DNA of 55,190 bases, taken from the NCBI GenBank assembly GCA_913775005.1, contig CAJYKY010000383.1:1-55190 (forward strand). The letters are read 5' to 3'. Positions 5,730 through 12,659 of the stretch are shown one piece after another. Below the pieces are notes generated by a model. The model saw only the letters and a program-made list of their open reading frames with translations. It was not told the DNA's origin and did no database searches. Numbering within the stretch: position 1 is the stretch's first letter; every line of letters starts with the position of its first letter. Position numbers and translations under genes: made by a program. The DNA is from an uncultured Achromobacter sp. GTDB lineage: Bacteria > Pseudomonadota > Gammaproteobacteria > Burkholderiales > Burkholderiaceae_B.

Positions 5730-7130
5730 ATGAGCGCCTTGCACTATCTTCGCGTGCTTCGAAACAAGCTCGTAGGTCTGGCTCAAACGACCAGCAGGTT
5801 GGACGCGCTGGACCTGCGTATCCACGACCTGTCCAGCCAGCTAAGCGCGTTGGCCGATCAATTACGGGCCTCGGATACGCAGGGCGCACGCGCACGTGAC
5901 GACATCGCCGCTCTGCATGCGGATCTGACCGCGCAGCACGCCTTGGTCAGCGCGTTACCCGGGCAGCACGATGCCGCGCTGAATCAGCTTGGCGATCGAA
6001 TCGGCGCGGACACCAGCGCGCTATTCGGGCGCCATGCCAACTTGTTCCACGCCCGGCCGCCCCGTGCCCCCGCCCCGCCCCACACCGCCACCGTCATCGA
6101 CCGCATCGCCTTTCTGGTGCATTCGAAAGAATTGCTCAACCACTACGGCTGTGTGTGGGATCTGATGCCCGAGGGCAGCTTCGACGTCGTGCTGCACGGC
6201 AAGGCGGGCTTGCCGACTGCGGCGGATCTGGCGCGGTGGAATTGCAATGTCACCACCACGCGGGCCTTGCTGGATGCGGGCCAGGCCTACCGCTGCCTGG
6301 TGTCCAACCACCCGGTGTCGGACGACGGCCAGCCGCTGATCAAGCGTCTTGCTGAAATCAATATCCGTTTCATGTATGCCGCCGGGAAATCGGGCTGGAA
6401 CCTGTCCAGCTGGAATCGGCTGTATGACGTCGTCCTTTGTTTCGGCCCCTACCACGCGGTGAACTTCTCACAAGCCTGTGACGCCGTCATCGTGCAGATG
6501 GGCTATCCGCGCTTCGACCGGTACTTCAACGAAAAGATCGACCGCAAGGCCTTGGCAGAGGCACAGGGCTGCGACCCCGCCAAGCCCACGGTTGTCTGGC
6601 TGCCCACCCAGGGCGCCCTCTCGTCCCTTGGCCACTTTGACGAAGAAATCGGCGCGCTGACGGATCGCTACAACGTCATCGTGAAAGTGCATCCGCTGAC
6701 GCCGTCAGCCGAGCCCCTGCGTATTGCCGCGCTGAACCGGTTGAACCTCACGCGGATCATCACGGACGCCGAAGACAATCTGCCGCTGTACCAGTTGGCG
6801 GACGTCATGCTGTTCGATTATGGCGGCCCGCCCCTGGCCGGCATCTATGCCGATAAGCGCATGGTGCTGCTGAACGTACCCGGCGCCGCGGACGATCATC
6901 TGACGGGTGACGATTCCCCCGACATCAGCATCCGCCGGCATCTGGTCAACGTGAACGTTGATGACAACGCGCTTGCCGCCCTGCTGGCCGACGAAGCAAC
7001 CTGGACGCTCCAACAGCATGCGCGGCGCACGTTGCGCAGCCTGTACTTCGCGCCGCATCACGGTTTCTCGTCGCATGTAGCAGCGCAAACCCTGCTCAAC
7101 GTGGACAAACTCCTCACTACAGAGATCTGA
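5730..7130 (+). CDS. CDP-glycerol glycerophosphotransferase (TagF-like) fold protein with N-terminal coiled-coil-like segment
   Basis: GYPRFD, VVWLPT, VKVHP, ADVMLFDYGG resemble Glyphos_transf motifs; ATG 5730 preferred over TTG 5664. Confidence 0.6.
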   Translation: MSALHYLRVLRNKLVGLAQTTSRLDALDLRIHDLSSQLSALADQLRASDTQGARARDDIAALHADLTAQHALVSALPGQHDAALNQLGDRIGADTSALFGRHANLFHARPPRAPAPPHTATVIDRIAFLVHSKELLNHYGCVWDLMPEGSFDVVLHGKAGLPTAADLARWNCNVTTTRALLDAGQAYRCLVSNHPVSDDGQPLIKRLAEINIRFMYAAGKSGWNLSSWNRLYDVVLCFGPYHAVNFSQACDAVIVQMGYPRFDRYFNEKIDRKALAEAQGCDPAKPTVVWLPTQGALSSLGHFDEEIGALTDRYNVIVKVHPLTPSAEPLRIAALNRLNLTRIITDAEDNLPLYQLADVMLFDYGGPPLAGIYADKRMVLLNVPGAADDHLTGDDSPDISIRRHLVNVNVDDNALAALLADEATWTLQQHARRTLRSLYFAPHHGFSSHVAAQTLLNVDKLLTTEI

Positions 7131-7131
7131 C

Positions 7132-7656
7132 ATGGTGATTTGGCTGGTGGGTTTATCCGGTTCGGGCAAGACCACGCTGGGCCGCGAGATGGCGGAACAA
7201 TGGCGGCGCATCGAACCGAACACCGTGCTGCTCGATGGCGACGAAGTGCGCGAAGTCTTCGCGCACGATCGCAGTGATGACGCCTATACGGTCGCGGGCC
7301 GCCGGCTGAATGCCGAGCGCCTGGTCGCGCTCTGTCAGATGCTGGATCGGCAAGGCATCAATGTCGTGTGCTGCATCCTGTCGCTGTTTCCCGATATGCG
7401 CGAGGCCAATCGCACCCGGTTCAGCCGTTACTTCGAGATATTCATGGACGCTGACATGAACGCCCTGGCGCTGCGTGACACCAAAGGGCTGTACCGCGCC
7501 GCAAAGGCGGGCACGCAACGCAATGTGGTCGGCGTGGATATTCCGTTTCCCCGCCCCGCCAATCCGGATCTGACGATTGTGTCGTCCGGCGAATGCCCGG
7601 ACATTGCCGAACTGGCGCGCCGCACGCTCGCGCAGGCGCAGGCAGGTTCACGATGA
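7132..7656 (+). CDS. APS-kinase-like P-loop kinase; Cj1415-like cytidine diphosphoramidate kinase
   Basis: IWLVGLSGSGKTT, LLDGDEVR, RDTKGLY, NVVGVDIPF; context with Cj1416-1418 homologues. Confidence 0.75.
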   Translation: MVIWLVGLSGSGKTTLGREMAEQWRRIEPNTVLLDGDEVREVFAHDRSDDAYTVAGRRLNAERLVALCQMLDRQGINVVCCILSLFPDMREANRTRFSRYFEIFMDADMNALALRDTKGLYRAAKAGTQRNVVGVDIPFPRPANPDLTIVSSGECPDIAELARRTLAQAQAGSR

Positions 7657-11354: not shown

Positions 11355-11943
11355 ACGTCGTATCGGCATCTCGATGCGGATCGTGCAAGCCGTGGGCTAT
11401 GCCGAGCCGCGCGATGCGCTGTCGCAGGAATGGGCGAGCCTGATGGCGCGAGCGCTGCCGGGTACGCCCTGGCTGCCCATCCCGAATCTAGGCGCCGAAG
11501 CCGTCGTGGCGTTCTGCGCCAATTGGAAACTGAACGGCCTGATCGTGAGCGGCGGCGACGACATCGGGCAAACGCCCTTGCGCGACAGTACCGAGCGGGC
11601 GCTGCTGGATTGGGCCGAGCGCCATGATGTGCCCACGCTCGGTGTGTGCCGCGGCATGCAGCTGATGTGCGAACGCGCGGGCGTCAGCCTCGTCGGCATG
11701 CACGGTCATGTACGAACGCGGCATGCACTCATTGGCGAACGCAGCGGCGAGGTCAACAGCTTTCATGCCTGGGCGCCCGAGCGTTGCCCCGCAGGATTCC
11801 GGCCCGTGGCCCACGCGCCTGACGGCGTGCTGGAAGCCATTGCGCATGACACGCTGCGTTGGGAGGGTTGGATGTGGCATCCCGAACGCGAAGCGTCGCC
11901 GGACGCCCTGGACGTGCAAGGTCTGAAAAGGATATTCGAATGA
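11344..11943 (+). CDS. Class I glutamine amidotransferase/peptidase C26; Cj1417-like gamma-glutamyl-CDP-amidate hydrolase
   Basis: [13 protein letters not shown] (Cys), VNSFH, MWHPERE (His-Glu). Confidence 0.85.
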
Positions 11944-12659
11944 AAGCAATCATCCTGGCGGCGGGACGCGGCAGCCGCATGGGCGACATGACGGCCGAAC
12001 AGCCCAAATGCCTGACCCAGATCAAAGGCGTCACCTTGCTGGATCGCCAACTGGCGGCATTGCGCGAGGCGGGCGTGGACGAGATCGGCATCGTGACGGG
12101 GTATCGGCGCCAGGCCCTGGCGGATCGCGGCTTGCACGAGTTTCACAACCCGGATTGGGCCGATACCAACATGGTGTCGTCGCTGGCGTGCGCGCAGTCC
12201 TGGCTGTCGGAAGGCCCTTGCATCGTCAGCTATTCCGACATTTTCTATAGTGCCCAGGCCGTGCGTTCATTGATCGACGAGAACAGTGCGCTGGCGCTGA
12301 CGTATGACCCCAACTGGCTGTCGCTGTGGGGTGCGCGGTTCAGCGACCCCTTGTCCGACGCGGAGACGTTCCGGCTGGCGCCGGACGGCACGCTGCTTGA
12401 AATCGGCGAAAAGCCCCGGACCGTGCAGGAAGTCCAGGGGCAATACATGGGGTTGTTGCGCTTTACGCCCGCAGGCTGGAAGGCGTTGGAAGCCATGCGC
12501 GCGGTGCTTACGGCCGACGTCTGCAATCGCATGCACATGACCGGCGCCTTGCAACGCTTGATTCAAGCTGGCGGTATCGCCATCCGCGCCATTCCGTACA
12601 CCGGAGAATGGGGCGAGGTTGACTCGCAGGACGACCTCGCCGTTTACCAATCTCCCTGA
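11940..12659 (+). CDS. Cytidylyltransferase (LicC-like); Cj1416-like CTP:phosphoglutamine cytidylyltransferase
   Basis: [48 protein letters not shown] overlap. Confidence 0.85.

Follow-up and report, generated by a model that had tools for sequence, protein, structure and literature searches.

The closest described relative of the system considered here is Campylobacter jejuni's O-methyl phosphoramidate (MeOPN) pathway, whose enzymes Cj1415-1418 use glutamine, ATP, and CTP to build CDP-phosphoramidate 3'-phosphate (PMC11800397; PMC10971088). Unmethylated phosphoramidates, with P-NH2 on a surface glycan, are cited for the lipooligosaccharide of Xanthomonas campestris and the lipopolysaccharide (LPS) of Shewanella MR-4 (PMC3907429), and occur in C. 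jejuni too (PMC9561416), so that a non-methylated product, which the initial annotation of the present locus did not know to be described, is in fact known. The window analyzed here, a stretch of 55,190 nucleotides from an uncultured Achromobacter sp., carries at positions 5730-12659 a cassette of seven genes in which the same four donor-enzyme families stand together, as in C. jejuni, in a surface-polysaccharide locus, along with a two-subunit enzyme resembling formyltransferases and a protein of the TagF type. The cassette is a real new variation on the known phosphoramidate pathway. Our tentative reading of it, to which we assign a probability of about 45%, is that an O-antigen, predicted to be a rhamnan, is decorated with an N-formyl phosphoramidate. 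The same weight is given to the broader proposal that a widespread two-subunit formyltransferase class makes this group, that it can be swapped with methyl tailoring, and that TagF-type enzymes of many lineages may deliver it both to O-antigens and to the glycans of flagellin.

Comparison with the described systems shows both what is shared and what has changed. The cassette belongs to a Wzm/Wzt locus, predicted to make a rhamnan O-antigen, whereas the MeOPN genes belong to a kps capsule locus; it offers a TagF-type candidate where C. jejuni has Cj1421/Cj1422; and it differs further in having no cassette methyltransferase, in having the additional two-subunit formyltransferase-like enzyme with an H-x-H motif (HxH), and in the absence of homopolymer tracts of seven or more residues within 1-12700. 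The Xanthomonas and Shewanella phosphoramidates likewise have no O-methyl group, but no formyl group is reported for them in the text cited above, whereas one is predicted here. TalE, of the phosphoramidon/talopeptin systems, is also a PPDK-like enzyme that makes a P-N bond, in this case in a small molecule; unlike the kinase discussed here, it uses a dipeptide amine as acceptor, is less than 20% identical to Cj1418, and has no accompanying set of cytidylyltransferase, class I glutamine amidotransferase (GATase), and 3'-kinase (PMC6482885).

Reviews call the glutamine kinase C. jejuni-specific (PMC9561416), and homologues of the trio of kinase, GATase, and cytidylyltransferase have been noted in a Borg element (bioRxiv 2024.11.05.622173). 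The glutamine-kinase family reaches beyond C. jejuni, hidden under labels for PEP utilizers, PuuD, and LicC. Just such a scatter of automated labels had been foreseen, and a plasmid copy of the trio is indeed listed in RefSeq as a PEP/pyruvate-binding protein, a PuuD family protein, and a phosphocholine cytidylyltransferase. If the formyl reading is true, the natural P-N functional groups would gain a new member, and there would be a formyltransferase, equipped with a partner subunit and an altered active site, whose acceptor for acylation is the nitrogen of a phosphoramidate. In the literature searched, with subscription journals mostly outside its coverage, nothing was found that describes the formyl module, a glycan bearing an N-formyl phosphoramidate, or this cassette outside Campylobacter. 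In C. jejuni, phages use the phosphoramidate as a receptor and serum resistance is influenced by it, so that a variant would matter for the phage host range and the serotyping of Achromobacter.

The Predicted Donor Enzymes

Assignment of the four donor enzymes, made at first from the sequence alone, is upheld by family models, to differing degrees. The kinase, of 804 residues, scores 865.5 bits against PRK05849 (NF004508; cut-off 501), which we take to be the Cj1418 family, and at most 52 bits against PEP-synthase models; its phospho-histidine, His759, is invariant in 22 of 22 aligned homologues. The small kinase reaches 144.7 bits against PRK05541 (NF004041; cut-off 127), a family that presumably includes Cj1415, and stays below the cut-offs of true APS kinases (100 against 138.7 for TIGR00455, apsK; 106 against 244 for PRK00889). 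For the GATase, whose catalytic triad can be read from the sequence as Cys102/His179/Glu181, the best NCBIfam match is NF045546, the gamma-glutamyl-CDP-amidate hydrolase, at 94.8 bits, below the cut-off of 250; PuuD scores 27.5. This shortfall is general, since none of the 52 kinase-adjacent GATases scanned (of 89 found) reaches the cut-off, all 52 having NF045546 as their best match at 64.8-194.8 bits. The cytidylyltransferase scores 76.6 bits against PF12804, and its PDB matches include 1jyk (LicC) and 6pd1, a fusion with a phosphonate cytidylyltransferase; no Cj1416-specific model is among its matches, and its assignment to the Cj1416 type is made from linkage. Identities as true PEP synthase, PuuD, or CysC were rejected on these scores. 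No C. jejuni protein is among the PDB matches, the family assignment being by models and not by direct comparison. Judged in this way, a P-N donor pathway made up of the four Campylobacter phosphoramidate-donor families is very probably present.

The first four steps of the proposed mechanism follow from family membership, which matches enzymes whose reactions have been shown for C. jejuni (Cj1418, Cj1416, Cj1417, and Cj1415, in order of action). The kinase (8940-11354) would phosphorylate L-glutamine on its amide nitrogen through His759 to give phosphoglutamine; the cytidylyltransferase (11940-12659) would add CMP from CTP, giving gamma-glutamyl-CDP-amidate; the GATase (11344-11943) would release glutamate, leaving CDP-amidate; and the small kinase (7132-7656) would phosphorylate the 3'-hydroxyl of the latter.

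A different use of this chemistry, in which the kinase has some other acceptor in place of glutamine or the product ends up on a different target (flagellin glycan, lipid A-core, or a small molecule), leaving the O-antigen without phosphoramidate, seems decidedly improbable. What speaks for it is that the kinase is likened to that of C. jejuni by family models only and that the GATase lies below its equivalog cut-off; that PPDK-like N-kinases such as TalE use other amines (PMC6482885); that the MeOPN signal is missing from some Campylobacter in which cj1416-18 are present (PMC3907429); and that close homologous modules lie beside flagellin-like genes with TPR-GT41-GT61-TagF fusions (L044, L051, L054). 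Against these stand the joint travel of kinase, GATase, and cytidylyltransferase as in the Campylobacter set, the position of the cassette directly after wzm-wzt-glycosyltransferase genes both here and in congeners, and the low identity and different gene company of TalE already described.

A second type of cassette was also seen (L071:5229-11897; L149; L152; L153), in which a cytidylyltransferase-kinase fusion of about 1015 residues occurs and no 3'-kinase lies in the fetched region. In L071 it is accompanied by a TagF-type gene and a formyltransferase, both distant; the latter too shows H-x-H and is without the helical partner described below.

A Predicted Two-Subunit Formyltransferase-like Enzyme

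The formyltransferase-fold protein of the cassette scores 38.2 bits against PF00551, above 26.1, and keeps the folate-site motifs GQIV, HxGxLP (HxxxLP), and DxG in alignment with Fmt. The catalytic apparatus of formyltransferases is an Asn-x-His...Asp triad. Here His124-x-His126 replaces the N-x-H of Fmt and ArnA, and Asp161 is kept; the first histidine of the motif is found in 24 of 24 aligned homologues and in 40 of 40 in a larger set. Measured against the formyltransferases that use N10-formyl-tetrahydrofolate (N10-formyl-THF), namely Fmt, ArnA, PurN, WlaRD, QdtF, and VioF, the protein thus shares the fold, the GQIV and HxxxLP motifs, and the catalytic His and Asp, but departs from them in its His for Asn, in a family-specific C-terminal motif, YxxHPxLKH, predicted to be bound by the helical partner, and in the weakness of the similarity (best E 1e-9, with the sugar formyltransferases ranking below Fmt, ArnA, and PurN among PDB matches). 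A poorly nucleophilic amidate nitrogen may explain the replacement of Asn by His.

Its neighbor, the helical protein, has no Pfam or NCBIfam family match. The predicted model is all-helical (predicted local distance difference test, pLDDT, 92) and gives no Foldseek match at E<=0.001; the best VIA comparison, with alpha/alpha-barrel hydrolases and epimerases, has a Z of 9.6, within the generic helical range, and an Atlas search with the homologue P0020 returned only unnamed clusters, at 0.80; no fold is assigned on these results. There are 1736 representative homologues at E<=0.001. Viral contigs yielded no confirmed homologue of the helical protein and plasmids none of the formyltransferase, and no RNA holder is listed.

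Several lines of evidence tie the two proteins together. PF00551 is present in 31 of the 43 longer homologues of the helical protein, and a full formyltransferase lies in 39 of 41 loci with it, the other two stopping at a contig edge. The helical protein is also fused once to an APS-kinase domain and once to a nucleotidyltransferase, but these records (P0161, P0194) stand alone and may, like P0293, discussed below, be assembly artefacts. The predicted complex has an ipSAE of 0.91, against 0.00 for the best of three controls, where the mark set for this score is reached by 116 of 157 solved pairs but by only 2 of the 215 that were mismatched; at least 95% of contacts are shared between runs, with a partner pLDDT of at least 82. 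In this complex the YxxHPxLKH motif meets invariant residues of the helical partner, whose invariant Tyr, Glu, Lys, Arg, and Asp residues lie in many cases at the predicted interface. The pairing of the two as halves of one heterodimeric enzyme is well supported, and the HxH pair is probably one new enzyme class. As the fifth step of the mechanism, the heterodimer (7653/8216) would formylate P-NH2 using N10-formyl-THF, a chemistry that we infer; formylation and transfer could come in either order.

Alternation of Formyl and Methyl Types

How the cassette varies across genomes provides an argument that its formyl module, the HxH enzyme with its helical partner, acts on the phosphoramidate. Neither the kinase nor the HxH formyltransferase is missing from any of the 22 GTDB loci found via the helical protein; 3'-kinase, GATase, and cytidylyltransferase are each present in 21, FdtA in 12, and a small S-adenosyl methionine (SAM) methyltransferase in none. 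The kinase family itself was found in 14 of 401 same-phylum genomes. Among 93 loci chosen through the kinase (14 from the phylum sample, 78 from metagenomes, taken from the best 80 of 797 and leaning to this kinase, and one from a same-genus search), the formyl module is present in 18 and the methyltransferase in 22, with both in none and neither in 53, many of these last lying on short contigs. Fisher tests of this exclusion give p values of 0.005 and, with 3-kb flanks, 0.007, in a sample in which kin are not independent. A sample of 351 same-family genomes yields the kinase in 11, the HxH formyltransferase in seven, the cassette-type SAM methyltransferase in two, and both of these tailoring enzymes in none, and every HxH enzyme and cassette methyltransferase in it adjoins a kinase.

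The two types also replace one another. Both occur within a single genus (g268), the formyl in three genomes and the methyl in one. Kinase trees were built by FastTree and under LG+G4: in the FastTree tree of 64 rows the types swap six times, and in a tree of 33 of these rows, chosen by hand, at least four swaps fall on well-supported branches and a single formyl clade is rejected (p-AU 1e-84). Because the formyl module alternates with the methyltransferase, the two can be argued to tailor the same group. Formyl rather than methyl tailoring, proposed at the outset from this one locus, thus holds as a comparative-genomic pattern, with none of the 93 loci having both, and the formyl product is a prediction.

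The initial annotation had also called for a search of the upstream locus for methyltransferases. None occurs inside the cassette or among the upstream-locus genes mapped on contig C249, and no cassette-type methyltransferase was found in the genomes G020, G008, and G010, each 100% complete; the cassette methyltransferase profile (A6) gives only partial matches of at most 43 bits in these three and in G000 (57% complete), where true copies score 276-365 bits.

Weighing Formylation of the Phosphoramidate

A number of observations count against an N-formyl phosphoramidate. With flanks of at least 5 kb the Fisher p value rises to 0.066, and in an independent-pairs test, which corrects for kinship, all informative pairs lie in the expected direction with a median p of 0.25, which is not significant. 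A SAM methyltransferase of 424 residues lies beside the formyl module in five loci, so methyl and formyl tailoring can coexist. The cassette methyltransferase family, of 250 residues, is presumably that of Cj1419/1420. These two proteins, earlier taken to be the MeOPN methyltransferases, have no functional assignment and their knockouts left the capsule unchanged (PMC11800397), so the methyl-versus-formyl contrast leans on an unproven methyltransferase role. Within the enzyme itself, the catalytic Asn has become His in all members, which may have changed or abolished the transfer of formyl groups. The halves of split genes can pass the complex test easily, and a pass does not prove binding. 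To these points are added the score of the GATase below the NF045546 cut-off and the amino sugar of G020 and G008, which is left without an obvious acylase.

A conserved SAM methyltransferase of about 420 residues was seen in or beside the formyl-type cassettes L042 (11265-12536), L044, L051, L054, and L077 and could give a doubly tailored group; a partial match to the 424-residue protein occurs in L154.

Some of the same facts bear on the reading in which the P-N pathway and TagF transfer are right while the HxH pair formylates some other acceptor, of the pathway or of the glycan, or puts its folate-binding fold to some other reaction, such as hydrolysis or a different one-carbon or acyl transfer. 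We regard this as unlikely, if deserving of serious attention. It would accommodate the invariant change of Asn to His, the obligatory helical partner with invariant residues of its own, unlike the solved sugar formyltransferases, and the coexistence of a second methyltransferase in five loci. The folate-site motifs and the catalytic His and Asp are kept, however; the invariant residues of the partner lie in many cases at the predicted interface and need not mark a new catalysis; and the way in which the module and the methyltransferase alternate suggests that both tailor one and the same group.

Another candidate acceptor is the 3-amino-3,6-dideoxyhexose of the FdtA/FdtB route, which the formyltransferase might N-formylate in the manner of FdtF, WlaRD, or QdtF, the glycan then bearing a plain unmethylated phosphoramidate of the kind already known. 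Just upstream lie genes for FdtA and a DegT aminotransferase, and the locus holds no acylase; this arrangement invites such a reading, as do the sugar N-formyltransferases among the PDB matches, but these rank below Fmt, ArnA, and PurN. Moreover, FdtA is absent within about 10 kb in 10 of the 22 module loci, whereas the kinase is present in all 22, and the HxH enzyme occurs in none of the 340 kinase-less genomes. The amino sugar usually appears, from gene content, to have its own acylase: at least 11 of the 17 formyl-module loci with FdtA have a separate one, comprising a canonical N-x-H formyltransferase in six (directly beside fdtA in five), a left-handed beta-helix (LbH) protein in four, and a GNAT protein in one. 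The window has an LbH acetyltransferase (28092-28844) that shares 78% identity with the protein encoded immediately ahead of the TagF-type gene of G010. With this query no LbH orthologue was found in the complete genomes G020 and G008, and formylation of the amino sugar therefore stays alive for those two genomes. Overall we consider it quite unlikely.

A Candidate Phosphoramidate Transferase

For the N-formyl phosphoramidate to reach the polysaccharide a transferase is needed, and none of the Cj1421/1422 type had at first been recognized in the cassette. Its first protein, however, scores 29.1 bits against PF04464, the CDP-glycerol glycerophosphotransferase family (cut-off 22.1), and has the TagF fold. 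The predicted model of residues 118-466 (pLDDT 91.8) has Cps3D and TagF as its best Foldseek matches (E about 1e-10, TM 0.66-0.69), and VIA comparison ranks TagF first (Z 23.3, rmsd 3.8, 319 residues aligned), then Cps3D (21.0) and TarL (20.9), with an epimerase as the best non-TagF fold at 19.8. His321, of a KxHP motif, is invariant in 16 of 16 homologues; going by the motif only, Tyr216 seems to stand at the position of the first TagF catalytic His, and an invariant His194 lies close by. TagF-type enzymes use a CDP donor to place a phospho-group onto a hydroxyl, which is the reaction required here. The protein is thus like TagF, TarL, and Cps3D in its GT-B fold, its PF04464 match, and its KxHP histidine, and unlike them in an identity of only 12-15%, in a predicted CDP-amidate donor, and in that no gene for CDP-glycerol or CDP-ribitol (CDP-polyol) synthesis is found in the cassette. 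All 19 fetched loci with the close TagF-type family also carry the formyl module, many of them having been selected via that module.

The protein is probably the phosphoramidate transferase. As the sixth step, before export by Wzm/Wzt, it would free the nucleotide and join the group to a sugar as an ester, sugar-O-P(O)(O-)-NH-CHO; the site is probably the 3-amino-3,6-dideoxyhexose side group or close to it. It offers a concrete candidate for phosphoramidate transfer where Cj1421/1422 orthologues are absent, a gap raised in PMC3907429.

Fusions and flanking genes extend the picture of this family. TagF-type domains are fused to GT41/GT61 domains in L041 and L044. In L044, L051, and L054 (about 4700-20500) and in L041 (526-5211), the module lies beside genes that we take, from their N termini, to be flagellin-like, with TPR-GT41-GT61-TagF fusions of about 1600 residues; this arrangement suggests phosphoramidate-decorated flagellin glycans in Burkholderiales. 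The record P0293, an apparent fusion of TagF and 3'-kinase, is likely an assembly artefact, as it matches two separate G010 genes with small deletions. The N-terminal 115 or so residues of the TagF-type protein (5730-6080) are heptad-like and variable in length among homologues, reminiscent of the coiled-coil rulers of chain terminators. Wzt, however, is without the C-terminal domain that usually goes with capped chains.

Organization of the Locus

The initial annotation described seven coupled genes at the end of a wzm/wzt locus, and the genes, their coupling, and their families are as described (Table I). The open reading frames (ORFs) lie on the + strand, none with internal stops, and are joined by a 1-bp gap (7130/7132), by ATGA overlaps at 7653, 8216, and 11940, and by overlaps of 8 bp at 8940 and 11 bp at 11344. 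The order is kept in 3 of 36 same-genus genomes, exactly those with a full-length kinase, and all seven genes are found in that order as well in Achromobacter sp. ESBL13, the nearest named locus (kinase 86%, Wzt 96%). Ratios of nonsynonymous to synonymous substitution (dN/dS) against the G020 copy are 0.07-0.35 across all seven genes, which argues that they are real and selected. No sigma-70 promoter match was found at 5500-5800.

Table I. Positions of the cassette genes and of the adjoining part of the locus in the window
Feature	Coordinates	Strand	Evidence
wzm 3' half, wzt, repeat + GT61 protein, FdtA-type isomerase, DegT aminotransferase, GT2	1-5552	+	Pfam, NCBIfam
TagF-type protein	5730-7130	+	PF04464, structure match
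Cj1415-like cytidine diphosphoramidate 3'-kinase	7132-7656	+	APS-kinase fold; Walker A at residues 7-14; NCBIfam
All-helical 188-residue protein, putative formyltransferase partner subunit	7653-8219	+	Fusions, predicted complex
Formyltransferase-fold protein, H124-x-H126	8216-8947	+	PF00551 (Formyl_trans_N), alignment to ArnA and Fmt
Cj1418-like L-glutamine kinase, PPDK_N and phospho-His domains	8940-11354	+	NF004508/PRK05849
Cj1417-like gamma-glutamyl-CDP-amidate hydrolase, class I GATase	11344-11943	+	Best NCBIfam match, below cut-off
Cj1416-like CTP:phosphoglutamine cytidylyltransferase	11940-12659	+	PF12804 (NTP_transf_3), PDB matches, linkage

Judging from their families, the genes upstream of the cassette are likely those for export and for the 3-amino-3,6-dideoxyhexose side group of its target O-polysaccharide. 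The upstream half of the locus, on contig C249, holds genes that we take to be rml-type from their sequence starts, together with GT2, WsaF-like, epimerase, and RgpF genes called by Pfam on their G020 copy. As a whole the locus genes suggest that the O-antigen is a rhamnan, which would bear 3-amino-3,6-dideoxyhexose as a side group and leave the cell through an ABC transporter. Wzt, of 247 residues, is without a C-terminal glycan-binding domain. A capsule as target was judged less likely, the wzm fragment favoring an O-antigen galactan model (115 bits) over KpsM (20.5 bits).

The GT61 protein starts with several repeats of about 37 residues (1166-2000), of the type FD..WY....PD...PL.HY..G.EGR and with no Pfam match; its G010 counterpart, of 1118 residues, has more copies. 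In G010 (L018:1-10089) about 12 kb of extra genes between the GT2 and TagF-type genes split the locus. Two further features of the window lie beyond the cassette. One, at 44981-46921, encodes a protein of 647 residues in which a heme-oxygenase-like iron redox domain is combined with a C-terminal ACP-synthase-III domain, and may be a small biosynthetic gene. The other, beside waaA/waaC, is a second glycosylation island of low GC content (25246-28844; 57.6%), which consists of a membrane protein without a Pfam match, a GT2, a small ORF (27635-28036) that we take from its sequence only to be GtrA-like, and the LbH acetyltransferase mentioned above. This island may serve for acetylation of the 3-amino sugar, or else for modification of LPS by way of a lipid-linked sugar.

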